Below, piece after piece: positions 32,457 to 54,861 of a stretch of 64,000 bases of DNA. The position numbers and the translations under genes were made by a program. The stretch comes from Minisyncoccota bacterium. GTDB lineage: Bacteria; Patescibacteriota; Minisyncoccia; JBAYJV01. The notes beneath the pieces are model-generated. The model was not told the DNA's origin and searched no databases. It saw nothing but the letters and a program-made list of their open reading frames with translations. How positions within the stretch are numbered: the first letter of the stretch is position 1; each line of letters starts with the position of its first letter. The stretch covers positions 21,179 to 85,178 of the forward strand of contig JBAYJV010000003.1 in the NCBI GenBank assembly GCA_041664925.1, written 5' to 3'.

Positions 32457-32594
32457 AGGGAGTGAGAAGAGAGTTGGGATTTATGCAATACCTCTTGGCA
32501 ATGATGTGGTTGGAATGTAAAAATTCTTACTAGATCGCTGCCAAGATGGTAGCTTCCGGTGAAGTACCGGAGAATCCCGAGATGGGAGGAAACC
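32457..32594 (+). ncRNA. Long conserved 5' leader of three cassettes (GGTTGGAA, ATTCTTACTA, three hairpins, GGGAGGAAAC RBS), candidate cis-regulatory RNA. Paralogous leaders at about 44210-44337 and 54752-54861
   Basis: Blocks are conserved across three loci. Paired positions show compensatory changes (GCTGTtgaaacgACAGC versus GCTGCCaagatGGTAGC, and CCGGTggagTACCGG versus CCGGTgaagTACCGG). Confidence 0.4.
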
Positions 32595-32996
32595 GTGACG
32601 CAAAGAAAGAGTGGACAAGAGATTCTTCTCTCTAAGTCAGTCTGTTTTGCCTTGGAAATGGTACGCATCTGCCTGTGGCAAGTGCCGACGGGAGTTTATC
32701 TTCTCAATGGACCATGGATGCAGATGAATATGGCGTCCAGCCTTATGGGGAACGAAAACCATGGATGTCGGCTTGTAACATTTTCAATTCTTGTCCATCC
32801 AAACACTCGCATCAGTGCTACCTGCAATGTTCGTTGTGTGAGTGGTGAATGGAGGACGGGTACGGTCGAGATCTGGCTGCTTGATGCCGAAGGCAAAAGG
32901 CGGGATGATAAGCGCTGGAAGTTCGATTGTCGATTCAACGAGAACGGCGATGGCGGGTGGAATATCCGTTGGTTGGATCCAATCAAGAGTCAGTAG
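32595..32996 (+). CDS. cassette ORF, about 133 aa with a GTG start, distant paralog of 44338 and 54862 (the C-terminus ...WNIRWLDPIKSQ matches ...WNPKWELVPLPKKSQ)
   Basis: The GTG directly follows GGGAGGAAACC, exactly analogous to GGGAGGAAAC-ATG at 44338. Type-2 terminator at 33008. Confidence 0.45.
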   Translation: MTQRKSGQEILLSKSVCFALEMVRICLWQVPTGVYLLNGPWMQMNMASSLMGNENHGCRLVTFSILVHPNTRISATCNVRCVSGEWRTGTVEIWLLDAEGKRRDDKRWKFDCRFNENGDGGWNIRWLDPIKSQ

Positions 32997-33007
32997 GAGT
33001 AAGAAGT

Positions 33008-33047
33008 GCGGCTCGGCGACAGAGGTTGCCGGGCCGTTTTTTTTGTC
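33008..33047 (+). terminator. Cassette terminator type 2: GCGGCTCGGCGAC-AGAG-GTTGCCGGGCCG hairpin followed by T8. Copies at about 38702 and 39178
   Basis: Three near-identical copies. Confidence 0.7.
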
Positions 33048-33303
33048 TAAAAAGGCAAAAAAAGTTTTTTATTTTAGGAGAAAATTAGATATAATGGCAT
33101 ATATAATGTAATTTCAAATTTTAAAATCCAAATTACAAACACGGGATTCTTCCCCTGTACCATACGGTACAGGGTCAGAATGACCCTCCTTCGCCCATCC
33201 TTCGTTAAAACTACGGATTGGCAAGCAAGACTACGGAAGGGCGAGGCAATAATTTCTGGATTTCTGCTTTCGCAGGAATGACACAATATATATAAATAAA
33301 ATT

Positions 33304-33810
33304 ATGGAAGAAGAAAATACTTCGACAAGCTCAGTACAAGTTGCTTCGACAAGCTCAGCACAAGTTGAAAATACAGAAGATATGGGGGATATAAGAGAGA
33401 AGAGGGATACGGGAGTAGCTCTTGGACAAGACTCAGGGCAAGTGGTTGAGGAAATACAAGTTGAATCGCAAGCAGATTCATCGCAACCATCTTCGCCTGA
33501 AATTACTGAGCCGGTTTTGCCGACGGTTCAGGTTGAGGAGACGCCAGTTGTTGCGCCGACGCAAAGCGCGAATTTTGATTTGCAAGGATTGGCAGAAAAA
33601 ATGAAGGCGGCGATTTTTGGAAGACGCGAGAAAAAATTGGCGAAAATTTTAGATTATTTGAATGCGAATGGGAAAATTAAAAATGAGGAGATTAGAAAAT
33701 TAGTCAGAGTTTCCAGCGCAACCGCTACGAGATATATGAATATTTTAGAAGAAAGAAAACAAGTTGAACAAATTAGAACAAAAAGACATGCTTTTTATAA
33801 GAAAATTTGA
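33304..33810 (+). CDS. hypothetical protein with a C-terminal winged-helix-like DNA-binding region
   Basis: Acidic, low-complexity N-terminus. C-terminus LAKILDYLNANGKIKNEEIRKLVRVSSATATRYMNILEE is HTH-like. Confidence 0.4.
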   Translation: MEEENTSTSSVQVASTSSAQVENTEDMGDIREKRDTGVALGQDSGQVVEEIQVESQADSSQPSSPEITEPVLPTVQVEETPVVAPTQSANFDLQGLAEKMKAAIFGRREKKLAKILDYLNANGKIKNEEIRKLVRVSSATATRYMNILEERKQVEQIRTKRHAFYKKI

Positions 33811-34126
33811 GATAGCTCTATGGCTCACATTGCGGGTTTGAATGGAGATTTCTATGGCTCAAATGGAAGAAATGAGCCATAGGGTGAGCCATTAAAAATA
33901 TAATAGAATATAGAAGTTAGAAGATAGAGGATAGAAGATAGAATAATTACAAACATCAAACATTAAATACGGGATGACATTTTTGTCCCCGGCGAGCCGG
34001 GGCCTCATAAAACCAATGATTCTCTCGCCTTTGGCGGATCATCAGGTTTTATGGGTTGTCCTCTTGTTATCTGGGGGCGTTTACTGGTAAAATAGGAACA
34101 GGTTTGCGTTTTGTTATTTACTTGAT

Positions 34127-34624
34127 TTGTGTTTTATTAACATGGGATTTTTAGATAAGATATTTGCAATGTTTAAAAAAGAATCGCCGATCGAAGGCAG
34201 TATTGATGGCGGTCCGATTGTGACGGGTGGCAGCGCTGATGGAGCGGAAATTGTTGGCGATCAAGGCGCAGCGAAAACCGTTGATTTTCCGGAGCAACCG
34301 GTGCAGCCTGGGAAACCGGAACAATCTGAGCAGTCTGAGCAACCTGAGCAGCCGAAAGAGGATGTTGTGGATATGGCGGGAGGGGCGGTTGGTGACGAGG
34401 CAGGGGTTATTGCGGAAAAACCTGTTGAACCTGAAACGGTTGAAAAAGAAGTAGCTAGTGTTGAGGTAGAACCGTTGGAAAAAGTAGAAGAAGTTAAGCA
34501 AGCTCCGGTATCAAATCCAGCGACTTCGATCGAAGAGTTGGAAGCGAAGATTGGGACTGGCGCAGAACCAGAGATTATGGCTCAAGAGGGCGGGCCAGAG
34601 GAAATGGATAAACCGGAAGAATAA
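34127..34624 (+). CDS. acidic, Pro/Glu-rich low-complexity protein
   Basis: Repeats of PEQ, SEQ and PEQ. Predicted disordered. Confidence 0.35.
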   Translation: MCFINMGFLDKIFAMFKKESPIEGSIDGGPIVTGGSADGAEIVGDQGAAKTVDFPEQPVQPGKPEQSEQSEQPEQPKEDVVDMAGGAVGDEAGVIAEKPVEPETVEKEVASVEVEPLEKVEEVKQAPVSNPATSIEELEAKIGTGAEPEIMAQEGGPEEMDKPEE

Positions 34625-34747
34625 TTTGTTTTGTTATATTAAATTAAAAAAATGATTAAATTAAAAAAAGCCAATCATGGCGCACGACCGGCATTAAGAA
34701 AAGCCCTTAAAAAGCACAAGAGAAAATAATATTAATTAAAATATATT

Positions 34748-35209
34748 ATGCCTGAAGATAAATTAAAAACACAGGAGGGAGTTGATAAATCCAAAGATTT
34801 GGAAAGAAATGTTTTAGTAGAACCAATCGGCGAAGGAGTTGTTGTTGAAAAAGAAATTAGCCCAGAAGAAGCAAGAGAAAAAGAGAGAATAACAGAAAAA
34901 AGAAAAGAAGCGATTAGAAAAACTGTTGAGGAAAAAGAAGTTGGCGAGGAACAGAGAGAAACAATTGATGAGATAAAAAAAGAAGCGCGAAAATCGGGAA
35001 CTTGGGAGGTTTTTAATGATGACCAAATCGTAGAAAGGCTAATTTTAGCGATAAAAGATGACGATAATCGCCATAATTTAGAAAATGCTTTGCAAGCAGC
35101 AAGAGAAATGGGAGAATCTGTGTTCGATAATTTAATTGGCGAACTTGCGGGCAATGACGAAGTTTGGGAAATCTTAAAAGAAAAAGGATACATAGATTAT
35201 CCTGAATAA
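34748..35209 (+). CDS. acidic hypothetical protein
   Basis: 153-aa ORF with a Glu/Lys-rich helix. Confidence 0.35.
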   Translation: MPEDKLKTQEGVDKSKDLERNVLVEPIGEGVVVEKEISPEEAREKERITEKRKEAIRKTVEEKEVGEEQRETIDEIKKEARKSGTWEVFNDDQIVERLILAIKDDDNRHNLENALQAAREMGESVFDNLIGELAGNDEVWEILKEKGYIDYPE

Positions 35210-35224
35210 TAATTAGGTATTTTT

Positions 35225-37648
35225 ATGGAGAAATTCTTTTTTGGAGCTGTTTTTGTGATTGTTATTGGCGCTTTGTTTTTTGCTGGGCGGATTATTTTCA
35301 AAAAAAGAAAGAAGGGACACCTGGGAAATCTCTTGGGAATGTCTCTTTTTTTAATTAGGCTACCGAAAAACGAAAGAAAACTTAAAGAGGGCGAGACGAG
35401 CAGGGATTTTCGCGAAAAAATTGGTGCGATTGAACAATTTTATGCGAGTTTTTCAGGTTTGACTCGCAAGGGATGGAAAAAGTTTATTTATGGGTTACCC
35501 AGAATAACAGTTGAGATAGCTAATACAATTCAACAAGAAGAAGTCGGTTTTTATATTTCTGTGCCAAAGGGACTCGAGGCTCAAGCCAAGAAACATCTTC
35601 AGGGAATTTATCCGGAAGCTGAAATCGATCGCTGCGAAAAAGATTATAATCCATTTGTTCCTCAAGGAGAATCGGCTGGAGGGTATTTTGTTTTGAGAAA
35701 AGATATTTTATTGCCCTTGAATACTTATACAAATCTCAAAATTGATCCATTAGCGCAAATCACCAATACGCTTAGCAATATTTTTCCAGAAGAAGGAGCG
35801 GCGGTTCAACTGGTGATCAGGCCAGCTAATAATAAATGGAATGAAAAAGCCAAAGAAGCGGTCAAACAACTAGGCGAAGGCAAGAAATTTTCGGATATAA
35901 AAAAAGGCATGAATATACCTGCTGGACTTGGAAGCGAATTTAAAAAACTTGTAACCATGGAGAATAAAGATGAAGAAGAAAAGGTTCAAAGAGTTGATGA
36001 GACTACTCTGGAATTGGTAAAGAATAAATCCCAAAAAACATTATTCGAAGCAAATATTAGAATTGTAGCATCATCACAAGATAAGATGTCTGTCAAGAGA
36101 ATTCTCGATGCTTTGGTCGCAGCTTTTGGTCAATATGATTTGAATCAGGGAAATTCTTTGGAATTTATCAATCTTAAGAAAAAACCATTGAAGCAGATGT
36201 TTTATAATTTTAGTCTGCGATTTTTTGATACGAAAAAAATAGTTATTTTGAATGCGGAAGAATTGGCAAGCATTTTTCATTTATCGATTGAAAATCTTAG
36301 AACGCCAAAGATAAAAACCCTAAAAACCGCGAAGGCGCCTATACCTGTCGAACTTCCCGATGCTGGACCAGTTATTTTGGGTGAGGCAACATTTAGAGAA
36401 GAAACGAAAAAAGTTTATTTTGCGACCGATAACGATCGCCGCAGACATTTTTATATTATTGGACAAACCGGTACTGGTAAAACATCTCTCTTAAAAGAAA
36501 TGATCCGTCAAGATATTGAGGCTGGTCGGGGCGTTGGTGTGGTTGATCCTCACGGAGATTTGATTGAAGATACGCTATCGAATATTCCGCTTCATCGCCG
36601 AGACGATGTCGTTCTATTTGAACCATTTAATACGGAAAATCCAGTGGGACTAAATATGCTTGAATATGACACAGAGGAACAAAAAGATTTTGCGGTTCAG
36701 GAAATGGTTGCGATTTTCCAAAAACTTTTCCCGCCAGAAATGATCGGGCCGATGTTCGAACATTATATGAGAAATGCGATGTTGGCGCTAATGGCTGACA
36801 AAGATGATCCGGGAACGCTAGTCGAAATTCCAAGAATCTTTACCGATGATTTATACATGGAAGAACGACTAGCTAAAGTTAAAGATTTGGTAGTGAGGCA
36901 ATTCTGGGAAAAAGAATGGAAGAAAACAACAGGACAAACCAGATCTGATATGCTTGGCTATGTTGTCTCCAAAGTTGGCCGATTTGTCGAAAATGCGATG
37001 ATGCGCAACATTATTGGTCAAGCGCATTCGGGTGTCAACTTGTCCGACATCATGGACAAAGGAAAAATCTTTCTGGCGAATCTTTCCAAAGGTCAAACTG
37101 GCGAGGTTAATAGTTCTTTGCTTGGACTTATTCTTGTCAGTAAATGTCAAATGGCAGCCATGAGGCGAGGCAATATTCCGGAAGATCAAAGACGAGATTT
37201 TTACTTGTATGCCGATGAGTTTCAAAACTTTACCACCGATTCAATTCCGACGATTTTATCAGAGGCTCGCAAATATAGACTCAATCTAATTTTATCTCAT
37301 CAATTTATTGCCCAACTTCAAGACAATATCAAAGACGCGGTCTTCGGGAATGTCGGCTCAATTTTATCGTTCAGAGTTGGCGTTGAGGACGGCGAGAGAT
37401 TGGAAAAGCAATTTGAGCCGGATTTTACAAGACAAGACATCATCAATCTGCCAAACTACGAGGCGATTATAAAACTGATGATTAATGGCCAAGTCAGCTC
37501 GTCTTTCCGCATGAAAACCACTGCGCCCAAGATTGGCGACAGAGCTCAAATCCAAGCAATTAAAGATATTTCAAAATTAAAATATGGAAGAAAAAAGGAA
37601 GAAGTTGAAAAAGATATTGCCAGGAGGGCAAAGTTAGGAAGTTTATAA
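35225..37648 (+). CDS. Membrane-anchored P-loop ATPase of the TraG/TraD/VirD4-like coupling-protein or AAA_10-like type
   Basis: N-terminal TM helix. Walker A IIGQTGTGKTSLL. Walker-B-like LYADEFQNF. 807 aa. Confidence 0.5.
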   Translation: MEKFFFGAVFVIVIGALFFAGRIIFKKRKKGHLGNLLGMSLFLIRLPKNERKLKEGETSRDFREKIGAIEQFYASFSGLTRKGWKKFIYGLPRITVEIANTIQQEEVGFYISVPKGLEAQAKKHLQGIYPEAEIDRCEKDYNPFVPQGESAGGYFVLRKDILLPLNTYTNLKIDPLAQITNTLSNIFPEEGAAVQLVIRPANNKWNEKAKEAVKQLGEGKKFSDIKKGMNIPAGLGSEFKKLVTMENKDEEEKVQRVDETTLELVKNKSQKTLFEANIRIVASSQDKMSVKRILDALVAAFGQYDLNQGNSLEFINLKKKPLKQMFYNFSLRFFDTKKIVILNAEELASIFHLSIENLRTPKIKTLKTAKAPIPVELPDAGPVILGEATFREETKKVYFATDNDRRRHFYIIGQTGTGKTSLLKEMIRQDIEAGRGVGVVDPHGDLIEDTLSNIPLHRRDDVVLFEPFNTENPVGLNMLEYDTEEQKDFAVQEMVAIFQKLFPPEMIGPMFEHYMRNAMLALMADKDDPGTLVEIPRIFTDDLYMEERLAKVKDLVVRQFWEKEWKKTTGQTRSDMLGYVVSKVGRFVENAMMRNIIGQAHSGVNLSDIMDKGKIFLANLSKGQTGEVNSSLLGLILVSKCQMAAMRRGNIPEDQRRDFYLYADEFQNFTTDSIPTILSEARKYRLNLILSHQFIAQLQDNIKDAVFGNVGSILSFRVGVEDGERLEKQFEPDFTRQDIINLPNYEAIIKLMINGQVSSSFRMKTTAPKIGDRAQIQAIKDISKLKYGRKKEEVEKDIARRAKLGSL

Positions 37649-37667
37649 TAAATTTTAAAATAAAATC

Positions 37668-38177
37668 ATGCCATCACCAGAACAATTCGGATTAAGGACA
37701 ATCGAAACACAAGGAAGTTTTCATGAGGTTGAACGCGAAAGGTCATTCGGTAGTGCTGCCGAAGATCTTTTTATTGAAGCGCTAAGAAATCATCCGGCCA
37801 TTGATAAAGTTGAACATGCCTCGAGAGAAGATGATGAAGTGGGAAAAACTGACATTTTAGTTTATTTTAAAGGAGAATCAGGGCCGATAAAAGTGCAATT
37901 ATTCGCTGGAAAAAACGAAGAAATTTTAGACAAAAAAGAAACAACCTTGCCAAGGGGGGTCACCTTGGTTCATGACAAAGGAACACTATCAAGAGCGCTA
38001 AGAAGAAGCGGCGACGATTGGTCAGAAAATGGCATCAGAAATGCGGCTGCATCTTTAGGTCAGCATGAAATAAGCGAGCTCTTTGGTCAAATTCTTGATG
38101 GCATGCCAAGAAATGAAAGGGCGGCTTTATTAATGAGACTACAAGGACGGCTCACAACAAGGACATCAAAAAACTAG
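37668..38177 (+). CDS. hypothetical protein
   Basis: 169-aa ORF. A bidirectional hairpin terminator follows at about 38180-38205. Confidence 0.35.
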   Translation: MPSPEQFGLRTIETQGSFHEVERERSFGSAAEDLFIEALRNHPAIDKVEHASREDDEVGKTDILVYFKGESGPIKVQLFAGKNEEILDKKETTLPRGVTLVHDKGTLSRALRRSGDDWSENGIRNAAASLGQHEISELFGQILDGMPRNERAALLMRLQGRLTTRTSKN

Positions 38178-38205
38178 TCAGCCCTGGGTTGACTAGTTTT
38201 GTGGT

Positions 38206-38367
38206 TTATCCACCAATTTTTACTCGTAGTGCTGCGCCTCCCTTTGTATCAATTACGAAAGATCCGTCTTTTCTTTCAGAGATGCCTCTGATTTTTTCTC
38301 CATCTACAAGACTGCCATCTGTCACAATCTTACGAAGTCTTTCAATCAACTCTTCTTTGCTTGCCAT
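38206..38367 (-). CDS. small protein, 53 aa
   Basis: AAGGAGG RBS on the minus strand. Start taken at MASKEEL. Confidence 0.3.
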   Translation of the reverse strand: MASKEELIERLRKIVTDGSLVDGEKIRGISERKDGSFVIDTKGGAALRVKIGG

Positions 38368-38877
38368 TTCGTCCTCCTTGTTTTGACGAAAAGAACTTAC
38401 TATAACACTAGCATACAAACATCCCTTTGTCAATACTTATATCGATATATCGGAGGCTAAGCCTTCGATTTTTTTGTTAAAAAGAATAAAATTACCCAAA
38501 ACCCTTGCATTTTAATATTAATTGTGGTATAATAGGTAATGAAAGAAGGTTAGGGTTCAGCAACTCAAAAGTACTCAAACATCAAGCAAGAAGGAGGAAG
38601 TACGAAAGCACTAAAATGGGTTCTGATTATCGGCGGCATTGTGGGATTGATCTTCGGAGTTGGTTGCGCATTACTATGGATGGGTGTAGGCGGATAAGAA
38701 GTGCGGTCTGGCGACAGAGGTTGCCGGGCCGTTTTTTTATTAAAATCTGTCGAGGACGGTCCTAGACAGTTTTTATACCCAAAACACTTGCATTTTAGAT
38801 TAAGGTGTGGTATAATAGATAATGAAAGAAGGTTAGGGTTTTCACTCAAAAGCGCTCAAAGAAGGAGGAAGAGAGAA

Positions 38878-39171
38878 ATGATAAAGGCGACCGTTGATCT
38901 TCACGGTTTTGGTGCTAGAGGCAATAATGCAGAGATCATGGCTCAGCAGATTTTCGACGAGTTCGGCGACGATCTCAGGAAGAGTGTGATCGTGGTGCCA
39001 TGCGAATCGCAGCCTCTCAAAGAGGACATGTTCGCAGAGCCATTCGTCAGGGTCTTTGCTGACAGTCCCGAGACTGCGTCAAAGATCAAGAAAGCAATCG
39101 GGCGAGTGAATTTCAAACTCAGCGTTCAGGTGGTGTCCGCTGATTCTGAGTTCTACTCAGCGAGCGATTAG
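38878..39171 (+). CDS. cassette ORF, 97 aa, acidic (MIKATVDLHGFGARG...)
   Basis: Promoter module at 38788. AAGGAGGAAG RBS. Type-2 terminator at 39178. Confidence 0.5.
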   Translation: MIKATVDLHGFGARGNNAEIMAQQIFDEFGDDLRKSVIVVPCESQPLKEDMFAEPFVRVFADSPETASKIKKAIGRVNFKLSVQVVSADSEFYSASD

Positions 39172-39214
39172 TGGAAGTGCGGTCCGGCGACAGAGGTTGC
39201 CGGGCCGTTTTTTT

Positions 39215-39360
39215 TATTCCCCCGTCAAAAAAAGCATTTTTTTTATTCTCCCGCCAAAAAAATCTGAAGTTCTGTTTCAGATTTTTTTATTCTCCCTGCC
39301 AAAAAAGTATTTTTTTATTCTCCCGTCAAAAAAACACCAAATTATTTATAAACAAAATTA
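39215..39360. repeat. Four tandem T7-A7 tract repeats of about 33 bp (TTTTTTTATTCYCCYGYCAAAAAAA)
   Basis: Seen directly. They sit between convergent genes, and one unit carries an internal palindrome. Confidence 0.6.
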
Positions 39361-39366
39361 GTTTTT

Positions 39367-40296: not shown

Positions 40297-40307
40297 TTAA
40301 AACCTTC

Positions 40308-40427: not shown

Positions 40428-41132
40428 ATGAAAAGGCCAGAATTTTTTTGTAATAAAATATATCATATTTATAACCGCGGCGTTGATAAGAGAAATATAT
40501 TTTTAGACGACATTGATAGATTTCGTTTTATTCACGATTTATTTGAATTCAATGATATTAATCCGGTATTTAATGCTGGTTATAATTTTAGAAACAAATC
40601 TATTGAAGTCGGACTTCAATATATTGATAATAAAAATAAACCGAGAAAATTATTGGTTGAGATTTTGGCTTTTTGTTTAATGCCGAATCATTTTCACTTA
40701 CTTTTGAGACAGAGAAAAGAGAATGGAATTACTGAATTTATGAGAAAATTAGGAACCGGTTATACCAATTATTTTAATCAAAAATATACAAGATCTGGCG
40801 TCTTGTTTCAGGGTAAATTTAAAGCTTTACTAATAGAAAAAGAAACTCATTTTATATATCTTCCACATTATATCCATACAAATCCACTAGACCTGACAGA
40901 TGCTAAGTGGCGACAAGATGGTATTTCAGGCTTAAATAAAATATTAAAGTTTTTAGAAGAATACCGTTGGAGCAGTTTACCCGATTATTTAAATAAGAAA
41001 AATTTTCCTTCAATTACTCAGCGTAATTTTCTTTTAGAAATTTTCGGAGGAGAGAAACAATACAAAAAAGATTTAACAGATATTATAAAAAATGGAAATT
41101 TTGAGGAAATAAAAGATTTAGTTTTTGAATAG
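40428..41132 (+). CDS. IS200/RAYT-like HuH tyrosine-transposase-like protein, copy 2
   Basis: YHIYNRG, PNHFHLLL (HuH), SGVLFQGKFKA and YIHTNPLD motifs. Confidence 0.75.
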   Translation: MKRPEFFCNKIYHIYNRGVDKRNIFLDDIDRFRFIHDLFEFNDINPVFNAGYNFRNKSIEVGLQYIDNKNKPRKLLVEILAFCLMPNHFHLLLRQRKENGITEFMRKLGTGYTNYFNQKYTRSGVLFQGKFKALLIEKETHFIYLPHYIHTNPLDLTDAKWRQDGISGLNKILKFLEEYRWSSLPDYLNKKNFPSITQRNFLLEIFGGEKQYKKDLTDIIKNGNFEEIKDLVFE

Positions 41133-43475: not shown

Positions 43476-44027
43476 ATGGAGCGTTCGGTTTTCATGAAAG
43501 ATGGCGGAAATTGGGTTTGCACAAGTGGGCCGGACGAGATGTTTGTTTCTTCTGCGGTTCGGTCGGTTTTGACAGCTTTCTCAACTTCGGCGATAAATCT
43601 TGTTCGCACTTCAGACGGCGATCTGGTGATCGAGACTGAGGGTTGGGATGTTGTTCGTCGAAACAAGGTGATTTATCGAGGAGCATATCATGGGTTTTTC
43701 GATCTACAGAATGTCGGCGAAGTTGTCGCGGAATTGAAGGAGGCTTTGTTCTCACGATCTGTTCAGATCGGTGTTCTTGAGAGCTCAGAGATCAATGATC
43801 TCGTTTTCGATTTCATATCGAGGTTTCTTGACAGCCCGGAAAACGACATCGAGAAGAAGTTCAAAGCGGTTCTCGTCGTGATCCACGGAGGCGCGAGGAC
43901 GCGAGAAGAAGTCGAGCGTCTTGTCGAGCTTGAGTGGTGGAAGCTTCTGGCTGCGGTTCAACTTGCTCGTTCGGAGCAGATGAGCGCAGTCGAAGTTCTC
44001 GACCTTCTCGAACCAGTCGCCGCTTAG
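43476..44027 (+). CDS. cassette ORF, 183 aa, paralog of 54128
   Basis: Promoter module at 43387. AAGGAGG RBS. Conserved C-terminus AVEVLDLLEPVAA. Type-3 terminator. Confidence 0.55.
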   Translation: MERSVFMKDGGNWVCTSGPDEMFVSSAVRSVLTAFSTSAINLVRTSDGDLVIETEGWDVVRRNKVIYRGAYHGFFDLQNVGEVVAELKEALFSRSVQIGVLESSEINDLVFDFISRFLDSPENDIEKKFKAVLVVIHGGARTREEVERLVELEWWKLLAAVQLARSEQMSAVEVLDLLEPVAA

Positions 44028-44061
44028 GAGAGCGGTTCGTACTGGTAGAATTGGTGGATCC

Positions 44062-44096
44062 GTCCCGGTAGAAGTTTACCGGGACGTTTTTTTTAT
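44062..44096 (+). terminator. Cassette terminator type 3: conserved GCTTAGGAGAGCGG block, then a GTCCCGGTA-GAAGTT-TACCGGGAC hairpin and a T-run. Copies at about 44829 and (variant) 54681
   Basis: Three copies. The stop codon is embedded in the conserved GCTTAGGAGAGCGG block. Confidence 0.7.
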
Positions 44097-44337
44097 TTCT
44101 GTCATTCTGAATGGTTCGACAAGCTCACCATAAATTCCACGAAGAATCTCATGTTTTACAATTGATTTTCATCAAATCCATTGCATTTTACACTTAATTG
44201 TGGTATAATAGATGATAAGAGAAGAGTTTGGGGTTTTCTTTCAATAGCGACTTGGTTGGAAATTTATTCTTACTAATTCGCTGTTGAAACGACAGCCTTC
44301 GGTGGAGTACCGGAGAAATCCCGAAACGGGAGGAAAC

Positions 44338-44784
44338 ATGTCAAAAAAGATTACACTCACGAACACAACGGCGTTGGCACTGCAGATGGCGCAGGCATGC
44401 GCTGTACGTGCGTATGGCGAGTTGGAGAATCGTTTGTTCCTGCACTCGGAATACGATCCAATGGATTTTGTCTGGCAGGATGGCAATGGTGAAAGGATTG
44501 TTGACGGATCAATATGGTTCTATCCCCAGGACAGTGTTTCCATTAACTTCAAGTGTACTCTTAACTACGAGTACAGGAAGTTCACAGAAGCAACAGTTGT
44601 GATTAGGAGATGGGAGAAAGAAGACAAGAAGTTCATTTGTACCATTGAGGCCGGTGAGTTGCGGGTAGTTGACTGCAACGCCGAAGCTAAGAAGACTGAA
44701 GAAGTACCTGTTTCTCGTGGATTCTGGCGATCACTCGCCGATTTCTTCACGAGAAAACATGGTGCGAAGAAACTCTCGGTCTAG
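44338..44784 (+). CDS. cassette ORF, 148 aa (MSKKITL...), behind the long structured leader
   Basis: The ATG directly follows GGGAGGAAAC. Type-3 terminator. Confidence 0.5.
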   Translation: MSKKITLTNTTALALQMAQACAVRAYGELENRLFLHSEYDPMDFVWQDGNGERIVDGSIWFYPQDSVSINFKCTLNYEYRKFTEATVVIRRWEKEDKKFICTIEAGELRVVDCNAEAKKTEEVPVSRGFWRSLADFFTRKHGAKKLSV

Positions 44785-45110
44785 TCACTGCTTAGGAGAG
44801 CGGTTCGTCCCGGTAGAATTGGCGGACCCGTCCCGGTAGAAGTTTACCGGGACGCTTTTTTTATTGAAATTTATGTCATTCTTGCGAAGGCAGGAATCCA
44901 GTAACAATAAACAAAAACCGTCTAGGACCGTCCCGATAAAATAAATCCTCGACAGTTTTTGACATATGTGGGAGGCTGAGCCTCCCACATATGTCAGGGA
45001 AAATGGTATTGAGGTCAAACCTCAACACTTTCTTAATCTTATTTTGCTCGTCCTGCTTGGTTCGGTGGATTCGATAAACTCACCACAAACAAGCTCACCA
45101 TAAACTCCAC

Positions 45111-46976: not shown

Positions 46977-46991
46977 ACAAGGAGAGAGAAA

Positions 46992-47165: not shown

Positions 47166-47173
47166 GGAGGAAA

Positions 47174-47724: not shown

Positions 47725-48390
47725 GTGAAAATGCAGACGAGATACGGTGGAATTGATGCAGTACTTTTTGATGTCAGCGGAGTCTTAATTGATGACATGA
47801 GAGCGGTTTACGAAACTAACATGAGAACGATTGAAGCTCATGGACAAAAAAGAATTACCTTTGAAGAGTGGCAAAGGATGCAGCCAATTACCTTAAAGAA
47901 ACTTCTTGAAAAACTTGGCGTTATCATGGAGCAAGAAGAAATCAATCGAGATTTTGAAAGAGTTTTTCTTGAAGTGCGTAAAGATCCAAGATTCGATCTA
48001 ACTTTGATTGACGGCGCCGTAGAAGCACTAGCCAAGCTTGAGCGTTCAGGCATTAAGCTTTTTGTGGTGAGCGCTCACGCAAAAGGTACCCTAGAACTAG
48101 AACTTGCAAGACTTGGTATTAGAAACTTTTTTGCGGATGTCATTGGCGGGACAAGTCAAGATAAAGCAACCGCAATTAAGAAATTGCTCCGATCAAATAA
48201 TTTGGATCCAAAAAGAGTTATTTTTATAGGAGATACAATTCATGATCTTATTTCAGGGAAGATTGCCGGAGTTAAAACTGCGGCAGTTTCGACGGGATAT
48301 AACACTCACGAAACATTAATTGCGCAGAATCCAACGATTTCTGTTTCTCGTTCTTTAGATGAGTTTCTCAAAGAACTTGGCATTGATTAG
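47725..48390 (+). CDS. HAD-superfamily hydrolase (phosphatase-like)
   Basis: DAVLFDVSGVL (the DxD nucleophile motif) and FIGDTIHD (motif IV). Confidence 0.7.
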   Translation: MKMQTRYGGIDAVLFDVSGVLIDDMRAVYETNMRTIEAHGQKRITFEEWQRMQPITLKKLLEKLGVIMEQEEINRDFERVFLEVRKDPRFDLTLIDGAVEALAKLERSGIKLFVVSAHAKGTLELELARLGIRNFFADVIGGTSQDKATAIKKLLRSNNLDPKRVIFIGDTIHDLISGKIAGVKTAAVSTGYNTHETLIAQNPTISVSRSLDEFLKELGID

Positions 48391-48462
48391 CAATCTACGG
48401 AATAACAAAACCCACCTAAGAGTTAGGCGGGTTTTTTAAGTTTAAAATTTAAAGTTAAAAGT

Positions 48463-50211
48463 TCAAAGTGAAGGTAGGATTTTTTCCAAAAAATCCTTAA
48501 TTTTCATTTCCCCAATATCTCCCTTGCCTCTTTCTCTGATTCTAACTGTTTTTGCGCCAACTTCCTGATCGCCAATCACGAAAATATAAGGAGTTTTTTG
48601 CATTTCTGCTTCTCTGATTTTCTTGCCAATCGTTTCGTTTCTTTCGTCGAGTTCAACTCTAATTTTTGAAGCCTTTAACTCTTTGACAATTTCTCTTCCA
48701 TAATCAAGGTGTTTATCTGATATGGGCAAAATCTTTACTTGGACAGGAGAAAGCCACATGGGAAAAGCGCCGCCGTAATTTTCAATCAAAACGCCCATGA
48801 ATCTTTCAAGCGACCCCAAAAGGGCGCGATGAACGACAAAAGGTCTTTCTTTTTCACTTTTTGCATTAATAAATGAAAGATCAAATTTTTCCGGCAAATT
48901 AAAATCAATCTGAATAGTTGATATTTGCCAGGTTCTTCCGAGTTCGTCTTTAACTTTAATATCAATCTTTGGTCCGTAAAAAACTGCTTCGCCTTCGTCG
49001 CGCTGGAATTTCCATTTTTCTTGCTCAAGTGCCTTTTCAAGAGTAGCTTCGGCGTCATTCCAACCCTCTTCGGATCCTAAGTATTTATCTTTATTTTTTG
49101 AATCACGAACACTTAATCTCACTTCGTATTCTTTGAAATCAAACTTTGTGAGAATTTCTTTAGTGAGGCGAACGACATTTATTACTTCGCTTAATAATTG
49201 ATCTTTGCCAGCACAGAAAATATGAGCATCGTCTTGAGTAAAGCCGCGAACGCGAACCAATCCATGCAAAGTGCCTGATTTTTCATAACGATAAACTGTT
49301 CCTAGTTCTGTGTAGCGGATAGGAAATTCGCGATAACTTCTCAAACTCGATTTATAAATCTTCATATGAAATGGGCAGTTCATCGGCTTGAGCTGATAGT
49401 CGCCCTTTTCTTCCTTGTCGATTTCTGCCATATGAAAAGATGGAAACATGCTGTCTTTATAAAACCCGGTGTGTCCGGAAGTTTTCCAGAGTTTTAAATT
49501 AGCAATATGAGGGGTATTTAGCAGCTGATATCCTTCTTCAAGATATCTATCCAAAACATAAGTTTCAATAATGCGTTTGAGTAGCGCTCCTTTAGGATGC
49601 CACAAAATCAGTCCCGGACCAACTTCATCATCAATATGAAAAAGATCGAGTTGTTGTCCTAAAAGACGATGATCTCTTTTCTCAATTTCTTCCTGAAGTT
49701 TTAAATAAATATCCAGTTTATCTTTTGATTCAAAAGCAACGGCATAGATTCTTTGAAGCTGGGCGTTGTTTTCGCTTCCCTTCCAGTAGGCGCCAGCAAG
49801 CTTGGTTAGTTTAAATCCTTCCGGATCAATTTCCTTAGTATTTTCTATATGAGGACCCTTGCACAGGTCGACAAAATCGCCGGTTCTATAAATAGAAACT
49901 TTCTTTTCACCCTCTTCTTTTAAATCATGAATGAGTTCCAATTTATAGGGCTCATTTTTGAAAATCTTTTCTGCTTCTGAAAAGGATTTTTCTTCTTTAA
50001 TAAAATCAAGATTTTGTTTTATGATTTTCTTCATCTCTTTTTCGATTTTCAGAAGATCAGCTTCTGTTATTTTAGAAGATAAATCAAAATCATAATAAAA
50101 GCCGTTTTCAATTGTCGGTCCGATGCCAAAAATTACTTTCGGATAAAGTTTTTTAACCGCCATTGCCATAATGTGAGATAAGCTATGGCGTATATTTTCT
50201 ATATTAGACAT
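48463..50211 (-). CDS. thrS: threonyl-tRNA synthetase, form lacking the N-terminal TGS/editing extension
   Basis: Class-II catalytic core followed by the C-terminal anticodon-binding HRALLGSLERFMGVLIE ... VKILPISDKH region. 582 aa. Confidence 0.85.
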   Translation of the reverse strand: MSNIENIRHSLSHIMAMAVKKLYPKVIFGIGPTIENGFYYDFDLSSKITEADLLKIEKEMKKIIKQNLDFIKEEKSFSEAEKIFKNEPYKLELIHDLKEEGEKKVSIYRTGDFVDLCKGPHIENTKEIDPEGFKLTKLAGAYWKGSENNAQLQRIYAVAFESKDKLDIYLKLQEEIEKRDHRLLGQQLDLFHIDDEVGPGLILWHPKGALLKRIIETYVLDRYLEEGYQLLNTPHIANLKLWKTSGHTGFYKDSMFPSFHMAEIDKEEKGDYQLKPMNCPFHMKIYKSSLRSYREFPIRYTELGTVYRYEKSGTLHGLVRVRGFTQDDAHIFCAGKDQLLSEVINVVRLTKEILTKFDFKEYEVRLSVRDSKNKDKYLGSEEGWNDAEATLEKALEQEKWKFQRDEGEAVFYGPKIDIKVKDELGRTWQISTIQIDFNLPEKFDLSFINAKSEKERPFVVHRALLGSLERFMGVLIENYGGAFPMWLSPVQVKILPISDKHLDYGREIVKELKASKIRVELDERNETIGKKIREAEMQKTPYIFVIGDQEVGAKTVRIRERGKGDIGEMKIKDFLEKILPSL

Positions 50212-50227
50212 GATGTAAATTAAAAAC

Positions 50228-53200
50228 TTATTTTAATTCTTGCACTTTTTCGCAGATCATTTTTGCGACATCACTCCTGGTGTCAATTTTACCTTCAACC
50301 AAGATAATCTTATCTTCTACCCAGATACTAGGATCTCTGCGCAACATCTTAGGAAAGACAATCACCTCTATTTTCCCGGTTAAATCTTCCAGTTCTACAA
50401 ACACCATTTGATCGCCTTTCTTTGTAACAACTCTTTTGATCGAGCTGATGATGCCGCCGATTTTCTGAGTGCTGCCATTAAACCCAAAGCTAGTATCTAT
50501 ATTATCTATCGGAAAGGTCTTTTTTTCAAGAGTTTTACGGTATTTTTCAAGAGGGTGAGATGAAACATATAACCCAAGAAGTTCTTTTTCCCAACGAAGC
50601 GTTTCTTGGCCATCGACATCTGGATATTTTTTAAGCTTAAGATTTAGGTCTTTTACATCTTGTCCTGAAAAAAGACTGGTTTGGCCATTAGCTTTATTTT
50701 TTTGATTTTCTTTAGCAATTTTAAGAATATTTTCAACGTTTCCCAAGAGCGTGCTTCTTGATTCAAAACTATCAAGAACCCCGGCTTTTATAAGGGATTC
50801 TAGTGATTTTTTATTTAAATCTTTATGATTGACTCTTTCAATAAAATCTTCGATATTTTTATACGGTCCGTCAGTTTTTCTTTCCTGAATCATAGCGTCA
50901 ATAAGATGATCGCCGACATTTTTAATAGCTGTCAGCCCGAAACGAATCTTATTAGGAGATGAGTTTTCTTTTTCCGGTTTGACGATTGTGAAGTTTTCCC
51001 ATGATTCATTAATATCTGGCGGAAGAACTTCAATCCCCATATCGCGAGTAGCATCAACCAATTTAGCAATTCGATCAATATTGGCGCTTTCCGAAGTCAT
51101 CAAAGCAGCCATAAATTCAGCCGGAAAATGAGCTTTCAAATAGGCAGTTTCGTAAGCAATATGCGCGTAGCAAGCAGCATGGGATCGGTTAAAACCATAT
51201 CTTGCAAAGGGCTTGATGAATTGCCATATCTGACGAGCAATATTTTTGTCAATGCCATTTTTGATCATCCCTTCAATCAATTTCTTTTCCTGGGCTGCAA
51301 GAAGTTTTTCAATTTTTTTACCTACCGCTTTTCTTAATTGATCTGCTTCAGTATAAGTCAATCCGCCCAATTCTTGAGCCAGCTGAATGATCTGTTCCTG
51401 ATAGACGATAATGCCATAAGTTCTCTCAAGGCCTTTTTTTAATTTAGGGTGGATGTATTCTGGCGCCTCAAGACCATGTTTTCTTCTAATAAAACTAGGA
51501 ATAAGTTCCATGGGACCAGGTCGATAAAGAGCCACCATCGCGATAATATCTTCCATTTCTGTCGGCTTAAGCTGTTTTAGATAACGCGTCATTCCTCCAG
51601 ATTCAAGCTGGAAAATGCCGATGGTTTTGCCATCGCGCAAAAGCTTAAAAGCCTTATCATCATCCAGAGGAATGTCGGAAACTTTGATGCGCTGTCCGCG
51701 AGTAGCTTTTACAATCTTAAGAGTATTTTCAATAACAGTTAAGTTTTTCAGTCCCAAAAAGTCCATTTTCAAAAGTCCTAGCGATTCAACGGCGTGCATT
51801 TCATATTGGGTAACAATAGTTTTATCACTTTGAGAGGCATACTGAAGAGGGGTGAAATTTGAAAGCGGATCTTCTGTGATGACAACGCCGCAAGCGTGAG
51901 TAGAAGCATGGCGAACCACGCCCTCAAGTTTTTTTGCATATTTAATCAGTTTTTTAGCGTTTTCATCTTTTTCACAAAGGTCTCTGAGCTCGGTAACTTC
52001 TTCAAGCGATTGTTTAAGCGAATAACCAAAGGGAATCATTTTAGCAATTTGATCGCAGAAAGAATAAGAAATTCCTAAGGCGCGACCGACATCTCGAATC
52101 GCCATACGCGATGCCATTGTTCCAAAAGTAATAATTTGTGCGACTCTATCTTGGCCATATCTTTGACGCGCATATTCAATCACCTCATCACGCCTCATGT
52201 CGGTAAAATCAATATCAATATCTGGCATGGAAATTCTGTCGGGACTCAAGAATCTTTCAAACATCAGATCGTATTCCAAAGGATTAACATCGGTAATGTT
52301 CAAAGCATAAGAAACCAAACTTCCCGCCGCGCTTCCTCTTCCTGGTCCCACAACAATTCCGTTATTCTTTGCCCAGTTAATAAAATCTTGAACAATTAAA
52401 AAATATGAAGCATAACCGGTTTTTTCAATGATTGAAAATTCATAATTGATTCTATCTTTAACGACTTTTGTGTCAGCCTCTTTTTTAAGGCGCTTCTTTA
52501 TGCCAACATCAACCAACTTTCTAAGATACAAAAGAAGATCGGTTTCTCCTTCTGGCAAATCAAACTTTGGCAAATGAATTGTTTCCAAATCAAGTTTGAC
52601 GTCGCATTTCTTCGCAATATCTTGGGTTGTTTCAATTGAAGAAGGGTAATCCTTGAAGCTCTTTGTCATTTCTTCTGGAGATTTTAATGAAAAATCGTAA
52701 TTCTTCATCGTCATTCTGTCTTCATCGTAAACCTTATTTCCCGTTTGAACTGCCACCAAAATATCTTGAGCAAGCGCATCGTCGGGATTGATATAATGCG
52801 AATCCTGAGTGGCAACAATCTGCACATCAAGTTCTTTTGCAAGCTTCGCCATCGCTTTATTGACAATTTCCTGTTCTTCAAGTCCAGGATGATGTTGAAG
52901 TTCCAAATAAAAATCGCCTTTTTTGAAGATTTCCTTCATTCGCAAAATAATCTTTTTCGCTTCATCAATTTTTCCTGAAAGGATTGTTTTGGGAATATGT
53001 CCTGAAAGACATCCTGACAGTGCAATGACGCCTTCCGAGTAATTTTCCAGCAGATCGTAATCAACGCGCGGCCTATAATAAAAACCCTCTAAATGAGCGA
53101 GGGTTGTCAGTTTTAAAAGATTTTTATAACCTTTTTCGTTTTTGGCGAGAAGCGTCAAGTGATAATTAAGCGCATCTGACTTTGATTGCTTATTTTTCAT

Positions 53201-53428
53201 ACCGCCCGGCGCAACATAAGCCTCAACGCCAATAATCGGTTTGATGTTTCGAGCCTTGGCTTTTTGATAGAACTCAATAGCGCCGTACATGACGCCATGA
53301 TCAGTCAGCGCAATTGCTTCCATTCCATCTTTTTCGCATTTATCGAGAATTTCATCAATCTTGGAAAGCCCATCAAGCAAGGAATAATGGGAGTGGACAT
53401 GCAAATGTGTAAACAAAGATTTCGCCAT
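50228..53428 (-). CDS. dnaE: DNA polymerase III alpha subunit
   Basis: N-terminal PHP domain HLHVHSHYSLLDG. 1066 aa. The whole length is polIII-alpha-like. Confidence 0.9.
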   Translation of the reverse strand: MAKSLFTHLHVHSHYSLLDGLSKIDEILDKCEKDGMEAIALTDHGVMYGAIEFYQKAKARNIKPIIGVEAYVAPGGMKNKQSKSDALNYHLTLLAKNEKGYKNLLKLTTLAHLEGFYYRPRVDYDLLENYSEGVIALSGCLSGHIPKTILSGKIDEAKKIILRMKEIFKKGDFYLELQHHPGLEEQEIVNKAMAKLAKELDVQIVATQDSHYINPDDALAQDILVAVQTGNKVYDEDRMTMKNYDFSLKSPEEMTKSFKDYPSSIETTQDIAKKCDVKLDLETIHLPKFDLPEGETDLLLYLRKLVDVGIKKRLKKEADTKVVKDRINYEFSIIEKTGYASYFLIVQDFINWAKNNGIVVGPGRGSAAGSLVSYALNITDVNPLEYDLMFERFLSPDRISMPDIDIDFTDMRRDEVIEYARQRYGQDRVAQIITFGTMASRMAIRDVGRALGISYSFCDQIAKMIPFGYSLKQSLEEVTELRDLCEKDENAKKLIKYAKKLEGVVRHASTHACGVVITEDPLSNFTPLQYASQSDKTIVTQYEMHAVESLGLLKMDFLGLKNLTVIENTLKIVKATRGQRIKVSDIPLDDDKAFKLLRDGKTIGIFQLESGGMTRYLKQLKPTEMEDIIAMVALYRPGPMELIPSFIRRKHGLEAPEYIHPKLKKGLERTYGIIVYQEQIIQLAQELGGLTYTEADQLRKAVGKKIEKLLAAQEKKLIEGMIKNGIDKNIARQIWQFIKPFARYGFNRSHAACYAHIAYETAYLKAHFPAEFMAALMTSESANIDRIAKLVDATRDMGIEVLPPDINESWENFTIVKPEKENSSPNKIRFGLTAIKNVGDHLIDAMIQERKTDGPYKNIEDFIERVNHKDLNKKSLESLIKAGVLDSFESRSTLLGNVENILKIAKENQKNKANGQTSLFSGQDVKDLNLKLKKYPDVDGQETLRWEKELLGLYVSSHPLEKYRKTLEKKTFPIDNIDTSFGFNGSTQKIGGIISSIKRVVTKKGDQMVFVELEDLTGKIEVIVFPKMLRRDPSIWVEDKIILVEGKIDTRSDVAKMICEKVQELK

Positions 53429-53738
53429 AGCCTACAGGGTTAAAAAAGTTTAAAGTTTAAAGTGAAAAGTTCAAAATTACAGTGTAAAATTTAAAATCAT
53501 AAATTCTTCCAACATTTTGCACTTTTCCATCTTCCGCCAAGGTTCTCCGACATTTTGTCGGAGGTTCTTCCTTTTAACTTTTCACTTCCTTTCTATTCTA
53601 AACTTTTTTATACTAACTTCAATTGGGGATAAGTGTCAAAATTCCACAAAACTCTTGCATTTTACACAATATTGTGCTATAATGTATAGTGAAAGAAAGG
53701 TTAGGGTTTTCGGTTTGAAAATACGCTAAGGAGGCAAA

Positions 53739-54131
53739 GTGAAAGACGGCAAAGTTGTGATTCTTGTCGTGGATGACAGTTTTCCCGACTGGAAACACGA
53801 ATGGGAACATGAGCTTCCCGATGGCGTTGAGGTCGTTTCGACTATGGAGCTTGAGGAAGGCAGGAGGCTTTTCCAGGAGCGCAAGAACGAAATCGACATC
53901 ATCGTCATTGATTATCAGGTCATCGGCGGAACGACGCCGGATCTGATTCGTGAAATCAAAGCATCGGGATTTAAGGGAGTGGTAATTGGCGTGTCTTACA
54001 CGACAATTCAACCGCTCATCGACGCTGGTTGCGATTACACTTGTGACCGCAAGTGTCTGTTCCACGATCGTGAACTTAACATCTTCGGTCACCTCGAGGA
54101 AGAAATCGCGAAAGCGAGGAGGGCGGAATGA
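53739..54131 (+). CDS. stand-alone receiver (REC/CheY-like) domain protein, GTG start
   Basis: ILVVDD acidic pocket. IIVIDYQ places a candidate phospho-Asp. Transcribed from cassette promoter module 53655. Translationally coupled (ATGA) to the next ORF. Confidence 0.5.
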   Translation: MKDGKVVILVVDDSFPDWKHEWEHELPDGVEVVSTMELEEGRRLFQERKNEIDIIVIDYQVIGGTTPDLIREIKASGFKGVVIGVSYTTIQPLIDAGCDYTCDRKCLFHDRELNIFGHLEEEIAKARRAE

Positions 54132-54670
54132 GGGTTACGTTCTTGAGGCAAAGAAAAGGTATACAGATGGAGACTGTCAGAGGAGCCGACAGTATCGGTT
54201 CCTACGATGTCGTAAGGAGAATTGTGGAACTCCTGGAAAGTTCGGCAACGAACTTGATCAGGGCGGGTAAAGACAATCTATTCCTCTACTCCTACGATAC
54301 CGTCACGGATGAACCAGTTTGTGATGTGTACCATGGATTTTTCGATAGTGATCGTAGATACTTACTCATCATTCTTCTGTATCAGGAATTGGACAGGAGA
54401 TTGAGAGATAAAAATCTCAATGGGTTTGAGGAGGGATTCGTCGGTGTTTACATGCCGGGACTTCTCGATAATCCAGAGATTAGTATCGAAACAAAGTTCA
54501 AGACGGTTGCTGCCGTTCTCTATGGCGGGGCGCGGCGACGAAGTGATGTCGAGCGTCTCATGGAGAAGGATTGGAAGGATCTCATCGCGGCGATCCGAAT
54601 CGCTCAGAGTGAGGGAATCGGCGCGGTCGAGGTTCTCAATTTCATCGAACAACAACCAGTTGCCGCTTAG
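54128..54670 (+). CDS. cassette ORF, 180 aa, paralog of 43476
   Basis: The shared C-terminus AVEVLNFIEQQPVAA matches AVEVLDLLEPVAA. Type-3-like terminator at 54681. Confidence 0.5.
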   Translation: MRVTFLRQRKGIQMETVRGADSIGSYDVVRRIVELLESSATNLIRAGKDNLFLYSYDTVTDEPVCDVYHGFFDSDRRYLLIILLYQELDRRLRDKNLNGFEEGFVGVYMPGLLDNPEISIETKFKTVAAVLYGGARRRSDVERLMEKDWKDLIAAIRIAQSEGIGAVEVLNFIEQQPVAA

Positions 54671-54861
54671 GAGAGCGGCCTGTCCCCCGGTAAACGACCG
54701 GGGGACTTTTTTATTGAAAAATATTGCATTTTATTAATTATATAGTATGATAAATTTGTTTCTTGATAGCGAATTGGTTGGAAAATATTCTTACTAATTT
54801 GCTGTCAAGACAGACAGTTATCTAGCAATCGGGCTGGATATTCCCAAGACAGGGAGGGTGT

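Follow-up and report, generated by a model that had tools for sequence, protein, structure and literature searches.

Three copies of a structured leader (c1, c2 and c3) lie within a 64,000-nucleotide stretch of Minisyncoccota bacterium DNA (assembly GCA_041664925.1, contig JBAYJV010000003.1, positions 21,179 to 85,178 of the forward strand; hereafter the window). Each copy sits between the promoter and the ribosome-binding site (i.e. the Shine-Dalgarno sequence, SD) of one of three paralogous orphan genes, referred to as family B. An earlier reading of the letters alone (the original prediction) had proposed leaders at the positions listed below, and all three were confirmed there. Every leader is preceded by the intrinsic terminator of the upstream gene and then by a sigma-70-type promoter. 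The features of the three units, in window coordinates, are:

32375-32400: terminator of the gene upstream of c1
32428-32456, + strand: c1 promoter (TTGATT, 17-nucleotide (nt) spacer, TG-extended TATAAT; 10/12 matches with the TG extension in a consensus scan)
32457-32594, + strand: c1 leader, followed by a GTG start at 32595
32595-32996, + strand: c1 B gene (133 amino acids (aa), GTG start), taken from the open reading frame (ORF) list
44061-44086: terminator of the gene upstream of c2
44178-44209, + strand: c2 promoter (TTGCAT, 17-nt spacer, TG-extended TATAAT, with TGTGGTATAAT at 44199-44209; read directly)
44210-44337, + strand: c2 leader, followed by an ATG at 44338
44338-44784, + strand: c2 B gene (148 aa; P0002, locus tag WC242_00225)
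about 54725-54755: weaker c3 promoter (TTGCAT ... TATGATAAAT)
54752-54861, + strand: c3 leader, followed by an ATG at 54862
54862-55287, + strand: c3 B gene (141 aa; P0003, locus tag WC242_00160)

Family B consists of small orphan proteins of 120-160 aa, and the three members in the window (locus tags WC242_00160, WC242_00225 and WC242_00290, on a 327-kb contig of a 'Candidatus Paceibacterota bacterium' MAG) are paralogues with 20-27% identity. The public annotation of the c1 protein (P0004, 104 aa) begins at an internal Met, too far downstream; homologues (P0007 and others) conserve an N-terminal helix, I[FL]LSKSV.FA[IL]EMVR, supporting the GTG start at 32595 behind the SD. No match to B was found in Pfam, PHROG or PADLOC. 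An AlphaFold model with a predicted local distance difference test score (pLDDT) of 85.5 displays one helix packed on a six-stranded sheet, and neither of two B models (pLDDT 64 and 85.5) had a significant neighbour in the PDB.

Two sequence blocks, GGTTGGAA and (A)TTCTTACTA, were present in all three copies, as had been predicted. The proposed leader length of about 130 nt was an overestimate of the motif: the first 30-45 nt of c1 and c2 (AGxxAxTGAxAGAAGAGTTxGGGxTTT) are a generic transcript start common to about ten cassettes of the window and lie outside the conserved motif, which is about 100 nt long. Single-sequence folds of c1, c2 and c3 gave z-scores of -6.9, -3.8 and -5.6, respectively, against shuffled sequence. 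A 5' enclosing helix, GGGAUUU/AAAUCCC, seen in the minimum free energy (MFE) fold of c1, was rejected as part of the motif, being specific to the window lineage, mismatched in the homologous loci L121 and L122, and absent from c3 and from all distant leaders.

Homologous leaders were collected, a check that the original prediction had suggested. A strict DNA pattern of the leader had no match in GTDB species genomes and matched one syntenic relative, contig L121, in JGI metagenomes, whilst an initial protein search yielded six B clusters only. An HMMER search of 1.8 billion representatives recovered more distant B proteins and a second profile search extended these to approximately 20 clusters, for which contigs were fetched. 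Covariance model R1, for which the first six leaders served as input, placed a leader directly upstream of the start codon in L247, L249, L251, L252, L257 and L258, with scores of 56-69 bits. In total, 15 distinct B loci were obtained, comprising 12 canonical leaders, two variant leaders (L253 and L254/L255) and one locus without a leader, L256, where an in-frame fusion joins a coiled coil to the N-terminal side of the B domain (580-1134). The improved covariance model (R2), run with filters off, detected exactly three sites in the 64 kb (E = 1e-16 to 1e-24), the next-best + strand match being at E = 0.014, and found no leader upstream of any other cassette in the window.

All recovered leaders lie upstream of B-family genes, on other contigs and in other organisms as well as in the window, and the organisms that could be placed are Paceibacterota, members of the Candidate Phyla Radiation (CPR); L247, for example, is Kaiserbacteria-like as judged by its HisRS. 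The B proteins of these relatives are only 20-50% identical. Leader-bearing contigs differ in their neighbouring genes, and the leader is strictly tied to B whatever the neighbours or the promoter type; within the window all three B genes carry the leader and roughly eight other cassettes with the same promoter do not. Scanning with the covariance model produced no leader in the 100 loci searched out of those having a cassette-type promoter (TTGCATTTT-N9-TGTGNTATAAT; mostly Clostridia), and there was no match in annotated phages (blastn), in plasmids (tblastn) or in viral contigs scanned with a P1-arm pattern. A loose DNA pattern (GGTTGGAA..TTCTTACTA) did hit viral contigs and was discarded, as it picked up only a conserved coding stretch translating to YKYGWKTSYYQNTYD that is unrelated to the leader. 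The 20-nt string GGTTGGAARACTTCTTACTA is likewise part of a highly conserved coding stretch (...YKYGWKTSYYQNTYD...) in many IMG/VR contigs (viral loci L001-L120) and matches the leader block by coincidence. The motif is rare, with about 15 loci in the collections searched, and literature searches returned nothing on it.

The consensus of the leader consists, in order, of P1, a long hairpin of 21-23 bp, a short linker that includes a GGUAGC-like box, a hairpin P2 of 7-9 bp, (G)AAU and a hairpin P3 of 4-7 bp that overlaps the SD. The positions of these helices in the window are:

32493-32546, + strand: c1 P1 (5' arm 32493-32515, 3' arm 32524-32546; MFE fold, RNAalifold and pair counts)
44239-44289, + strand: c2 P1 (MFE fold, RNAalifold and pair counts)
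54761-54810, + strand: c3 P1 (MFE fold, RNAalifold and pair counts)
32554-32572, + strand: c1 P2, UUCCGGU-gaagu-ACCGGAG
44297-44315, + strand: c2 P2 (folds, RNAalifold and pair counts)
54819-54840, + strand: c3 P2, UAUCUAGC-aaucgg-GCUGGAUA, at the same position as P2 of c1 and c2 and with an unrelated sequence
32575-32590, + strand: c1 P3 (32575-32587) and SD GGGAGGA (32584-32590), the anti-SD UCCC pairing with the first SD bases
44319-44334, + strand: c2 P3 (44319-44331, UCCCG-aaa-CGGGA) and SD GGGAGGA (44328-44334)
54841-54858, + strand: c3 P3 (54841-54856, UUCCC-aagaca-GGGAG) and SD GGGAGGG (54852-54858)

Folding revealed that GGTTGGAA and TTCTTACTA are the opposite arms of P1, whose apex in c1 is formed by GGUUGGAA/UUCUUACU with a U.U mismatch and G.U pairs. 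Across the homologues P1 keeps its sequence in the apical half, with an invariant pyrimidine.U mismatch (U.U in ten, C.U in two) and conserved G.U pairs, whereas the basal half covaries freely and the loop varies from 4 to 18 nt. In c3, hardly any sequence separates the predicted transcript start from P1. The enclosing stem CTTGGCA...TGCCAAG, which the original prediction had assigned to the second copy, exists in the copy at 32457 and is only the base of P1. A scan also flagged a possible internal promoter in P1 of c1 and c3 (TTGGTT..TACTAA), which was rejected because its spacing varies with the loop.

P2 is the clearest case of a structure kept without its sequence. Its arms differ wholly among lineages (CUUCCGGU/ACCGGAG, UAUCUAGC/GCUGGAUA, CACUUAAGG/CCUUGAGUG, CGUUUGAGA/UCUCAAGCG and UCUUCGGC/GCCGAAGA) and nonetheless always form a hairpin at a constant place; the pair-preserving change predicted for this hairpin between c1 (CCGGT-gaag-TACCGG) and c2 (CGGT-ggag-TACCG) is among the differences seen. 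The third predicted hairpin, CCC(G)-loop-(C)GGG overlapping GGGAGG, is likewise real and equates to P3. Its 3' arm is formed by the opening 3-5 bases of the SD, and in 13/14 leaders the 5' half of the SD lies within a short hairpin. The initial 3-4 SD bases were paired with a probability above 0.9 in five of six leaders, and in c2 the first four had an unpaired probability of 0.12 or less. In the 12-sequence consensus, invariant bases sit in the stems of P1, P3 and an alternative hairpin, H1, described below; no such constraint is seen in the linkers, the loop of P1 or the sequence of P2.

Covariation was examined in a model-fitted alignment of the 12 distinct canonical leaders (A8; 33 pairs, 396 cells). 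Standard pairs were formed in 93.4% of the cells and 17 of the 33 pairs had changed on both sides (53 cells), with all seven P2 pairs covarying. The covariation score was 0.449 as compared to 0.251 for shuffled alignments (0/500 shuffles), and sliding the partner columns lowered pairing to 37-51%. As A8 leans towards the model, independent checks matter here: a plain MAFFT alignment analysed with RNAalifold recovered P1 (22 pairs) and P3, and unconstrained single-sequence MFE folds gave P1-P2-P3 in 12/12 canonical leaders and a short hairpin followed by H1-P2-P3 in both variants. This strong covariation in 12 distinct sequences bears out the proposal of a structured cis-regulatory RNA under selection for structure. 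A small upstream ORF, which the original prediction had named as another possible source of the conserved blocks, was rejected, as the ORFs in the leaders agree neither in frame nor in start or peptide, and that of L123 meets a stop codon in the P1 loop.

The linker box takes part in the alternative hairpin, H1, located as follows:

32537-32553, + strand: c1 H1, GCUGCC (32537-32542) with GGUAGC (32548-32553)
44280-44296, + strand: c2 H1, GCUGUU (44280-44285) with GACAGC (44291-44296)
54801-54818, + strand: c3 H1, GCUGUC (54801-54806) with GACAGU (54813-54818)

H1 takes for its 5' strand the sequence that closes the P1 base on the 3' side, and is thus mutually exclusive with the full P1. H1 had been the first of the predicted hairpins, and its pair-preserving change between c1 (GCTGCC-aagat-GGTAGC) and c2 (GCTGT-tgaaacg-ACAGC) was verified; the predicted three-hairpin layout is conserved but omitted P1, the dominant helix, with whose base this hairpin competes. 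Among the 12 sequences, 71/72 H1 cells (98.6%) were paired in an alignment that was not fitted to H1, and the covariation score was 0.462 versus 0.334 on shuffling (0/500). For columns 61-62 of A8, covariation is seen with the partners in P1 as well as with those in H1. In the variant leaders L253 and L254 the base of P1 is lost, leaving an apical-like CUGGAA...UUCCAG hairpin only, and a perfect H1 (GCUACC-loop-GGUAGC), P2 and P3 are kept, indicating that an H1-containing fold is a viable form of the leader. The other strand of the P1 base, on the 5' side, is complementary to the anti-SD strand of P3 plus its loop, with 83% of cells paired. G.U cells outnumbered A.C cells by 37:4 in P1 and by 12:0 in H1, an excess indicating that the selected structure is that of the transcribed strand and not of duplex DNA or the antisense strand.

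The loops of H1 and P3 resemble each other within each leader:

c2, L121 and L122: H1 loop GAAAC, P3 loop GAAAC
c1: H1 loop AAGAU, P3 loop GAGAU
c3: H1 loop AAGAC, P3 loop AAGAC
L123: H1 loop AAGAA, P3 loop AAGAC
L251: H1 loop AAAAC, P3 loop AAAAC
L247, L249, L252, L257 and L258: H1 loop GAGAC, P3 loop GAGAC
L254: H1 loop GUGAC, P3 loop GUGAC
L253: H1 loop GAAAC, P3 loop GUGAC

Over the eight distinct loop pairs, 36/40 positions were identical and the two loops co-varied between lineages; this level of identity was reached by 16 of 40,320 permutations (i.e. about 4 in 10,000). Co-variation of the loops arises partly because the 5' strand of the P1 base is complementary to either of them. L254 lacks that strand; there, a GUCAC immediately 3' of the SD could pair with either loop.

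Comparison with Rfam 15 (4227 models, including all riboswitch classes, ROSE, fourU, the PyrR site and ribosomal-protein leaders) supported the view that the leader belongs to no known class, as no family matched at gathering or permissive thresholds. The gathering-threshold scan of the window returned two tRNAs only, and E-value scans of c1, c2 and eight homologous-leader loci gave only noise (microRNA and small nucleolar RNA models far below threshold).

The leading interpretation of these results, tentatively held, is that the leader is a cis-acting structured 5' element setting the translation of the orphan family B mRNA; small and of narrow distribution, the element probably acts in translational control. 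The data above show the conserved helices, the overlap with the SD and the alternative pairings; which way control runs, and what triggers it, we infer. Prediction and comparison indicate that by default the leader folds co-transcriptionally into P1, P2 and P3, with the 3' arm of P3 holding the start of the SD and so damping initiation; full P1 together with P3 would constitute the OFF state. At the base of P1, the 3' strand could pair instead with the downstream GGUAGC-like box to form H1 and the 5' strand with the anti-SD strand and loop of P3. Apical P1, H1 and the P1 5' strand lying on the anti-SD would then make up an ON state in which the SD is free. The base of P1 would most likely be opened by a protein recognising the conserved apical P1 with its pyrimidine.U mismatch and G.U pairs, or by an endonuclease such as RNase III cutting P1. 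A translational switch is the most likely reading of these alternatives, and its driver would more probably be a protein or RNA processing than a metabolite, given that the conserved bases lie in helices, that there is no multi-helix junction and that the regulated gene is an orphan. Of the mechanisms put forward in the original prediction, a protein-driven switch (or processing) hence fits better and a metabolite riboswitch is disfavoured.

Several observations weigh against such a switch. Constrained folding favoured full P1 with P3 over the H1-containing states by 3-14 kcal/mol; with these states uphill and P1 transcribed first, switching would need a trans-acting trigger. Long-range pairing of the P1 5' strand with the anti-SD is suggestive only, being equalled in 22/500 shuffles and having two of its six pairs often broken. 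L258 has its SD 3' of P3 and not within it, and P3 is short enough that the ribosome may open it anyway. Furthermore, the transcription start sites of the leaders are predicted, the sample is small (12-14 sequences from about six lineages) and the pair counts for P1, P2 and P3 were taken from an alignment fitted to that structure.

The co-variation of the loops points to another possibility, namely that one hairpin (pyrimidine strand, R-A-R-A-Y loop, purine strand) occurs twice, as H1 and as P3, the two being spaced by P2 at about 49 nt and bound by a dimeric RNA-binding protein that blocks the SD, with the P1 base tuning access; the protein could be B itself (i.e. autoregulation) or another lineage-specific factor. 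The same 5-mer recurs in both loops of a lineage and differs between lineages, the three paralogues of one genome have different loops (GAAAC, (A/G)AGAU and AAGAC), which such a protein would explain, L254 has GUGAC in both loops though its P1 base is lost, and the leader is strictly linked to B genes. CsrA/RsmA-type operators are built in this way, with two similar hairpins bound by a dimer and one of them over the SD. H1 and P3 are similarly alike and tens of nt apart, with the 3' one overlapping the SD; however, a GGA defines CsrA sites, and the loops here (GAGAC, GAAAC, AAGAC, AAAAC and GUGAC) contain none and are not universal but differ from one lineage to the next. Autogenous leaders (ribosomal-protein leaders, the thrS operator and phage coat-protein operators) share the strict linkage of leader to gene family and the conserved helical features, such as a mismatch and G.U pairs, expected of a protein-binding site; in contrast to those systems, B is not a known RNA-binding protein and no mimicry of rRNA or tRNA was identified. 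The better B model has no recognisable RNA-binding fold, just as it lacked a structural neighbour and the family lacked a database match; the invariant B residues are mostly hydrophobic or Cys, an intact P1 base prevents unaided formation of H1, and the two loops of L253 are unlike. A paired-hairpin operator is rather unlikely, and somewhat speculative is the specific version in which leader and B are a co-evolving pair, each paralogue reading its own H1 and P3 loops and repressing itself under the gating of the P1 base. If true, this would be an undescribed self-contained autoregulatory module specific to CPR bacteria. An RNA-processing or stability element was judged more doubtful again. Here P1 would be a putative RNase III-type site, and loss of the 5' arm would let H1 form at the new 5' end and protect the processed mRNA, leaving the H1-P2-P3 form that is native to L253 and L254. 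P1 has the size of an RNase III substrate, close to two helical turns, and contains a conserved pyrimidine.U mismatch, and a conserved H1 that is thermodynamically inaccessible unless the 5' arm has gone would be explained. Leader hairpins processed by RNase III include phage T7 R1.1-type sites, the lambda N leader and the E. coli rnc and pnp leaders. The present leaders are like them in having an imperfect 5' untranslated region (UTR) stem of about 22 bp with an internal mismatch, in preceding an independently transcribed small gene and in having a conserved secondary fold possible only after removal of the 5' arm; they have no sequence relation to them, and the co-variation of the twin loops is without counterpart there. 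Processing alone leaves both this co-variation and the sequence-conserved apex of P1 unexplained.

A new class of metabolite or ion riboswitch, in which P1-P2 would be the aptamer and H1/P3 the expression platform, was considered improbable, whilst the leader might yet be the first riboswitch-like class confined to Paceibacterota. It resembles SD-sequestering leader switches and translational riboswitch platforms in its 5' UTR location, anti-SD hairpin, covariation and mutually exclusive helices, P1 base and H1 sharing a strand and P3 occluding the SD, and a new class would match no known one. Unlike those riboswitch platforms, it has no Rfam match, its alternative state is uphill by the 3-14 kcal/mol given above, and its consensus lines up individual hairpins and offers no multi-helix junction or pseudoknot as a pocket, the conserved bases lying inside helices and not in unpaired junction or pseudoknot positions. 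An orphan gene with no metabolic or transport link and a very narrow distribution also argue against a ligand-sensing role. Transcription attenuation was excluded, since a scan found no terminator-like site between promoter and start codon in c1, c2 or c3 and there is no conserved leader peptide. The hairpin over the 5' half of the SD in 13/14 leaders would suit an RNA thermometer in which P3 melts on warming to free the SD. This seems very improbable, because the SD is paired by CCC/CCU (anti-SD UCCC or UCCU) and not by U-rich or ROSE-type imperfect stems, no ROSE, fourU or cspA model matched, the gene is an orphan, P1, P2 and H1 would be superfluous, and several source samples look, from their names, like temperature-stable groundwater or sediment. 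Scarcely credible is an element acting at the DNA level, whether a palindromic operator, a repeat related to miniature inverted-repeat transposable elements (MITE) or repetitive extragenic palindromes (REP), an attC-like site or a remnant of duplication or gene conversion. P1 is indeed an inverted repeat, the window has many modular cassettes with near-identical promoters and GTTGGAA resembles the attC core GTTRRRY. Nevertheless, the strand asymmetry of G.U over A.C favours the transcribed strand, compensatory changes extend across 50 nt, more than an operator would cover, P2 stays a hairpin even where its sequence is replaced entirely, and the element always occurs from promoter to SD on the sense strand of one gene family in varied neighbourhoods and organisms. 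For attC in particular, the GTTGGAA block is at the apex of the stem and not at its base, and each leader has its own promoter upstream. DNA palindrome, attC and MITE were thus ruled out by strand asymmetry and context. Nothing integrase-like was present in the ORF list or in family scans of a subset of the window proteins, which did not amount to a systematic search.

The surroundings of the three leaders are mosaic. The window is AT-rich housekeeping DNA (GC 0.30-0.38) broken by islands of GC 0.41-0.49, which consist of small units transcribed independently of one another. Promoters that are almost identical (TTGCATTTT-N9-TGTGGTATAAT) precede about ten of them, at 13009, 29734, 31107, 31666, 32446, 38523, 38806, 43405, 44199 and 53673, and most of the units also have the common transcript start AGGTAATGAAAGAAGGTTAGGGTTT. 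This promoter consensus is generic, a genome scan finding it in many Clostridia. A second leader type is common to two other cassettes:

13020-13172: second-type leader behind promoter 13009
31118-31220: second-type leader behind promoter 31107

It contains the blocks GGATGTAAGAG[CT]TTCTA and AAGAATCTCTAACAG(A)GGAGG with lineage-specific hairpins between them, and its 13009 copy had no Rfam match. The gene following promoter 31107 has a paralogue following 29734 that bears a short leader instead; paralogues with different leaders make the leaders look modular.

In c2, c3 and L121 the B unit is immediately preceded by a second orphan family, A, of about 180 aa with a conserved C-terminus (...AVEVLDLLEPVAA), for which no Pfam, PHROG or PADLOC match was found. 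Its genes, together with other features of the islands and of one homologous contig, are:

43476-44027 and 54128-54670 (window): family A genes
2986-3516 and 3785-4345 (L121): family A genes
35225-37648 (window): 807-aa DUF87/TrwB-type ATPase matching phrog_5156 (function unknown) at 1e-91
40428-41132 and 55442-56125 (window): two Y1 (IS200/REP-associated-type) transposase genes
near 44900, 46100, 55400 and 56100 (window): repeated short ORF fragments 'CGRLSLPHI', a dispersed DNA repeat at island borders
2613-4256 (L249): diversity-generating-retroelement genes (reverse transcriptase RVT_1 and bAvd), 2-3 kb upstream of the leader and B gene

The phrog_5156 match hints that the 29.7-39.2 kb island is derived from a phage or mobile element.

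Judged from comparative sequence data, the leader is a new, narrowly distributed cis-regulatory RNA motif of Paceibacterota, with a well-supported structure and an inferred mechanism. Many orphan leader motifs of this general kind have already been catalogued and, with a rare motif and an orphan gene, the present one is a solid but modest addition. It gives a functional handle on the orphan protein family B, and the co-varying twin loops, different in each of three paralogues of the same genome, offer a compact natural example of insulated regulatory specificity. To our knowledge, gene regulation in CPR/Patescibacteria is barely known and no member has a genetic system; for these bacteria, a covariation-supported leader with built-in alternative pairing represents a concrete, testable regulatory element.

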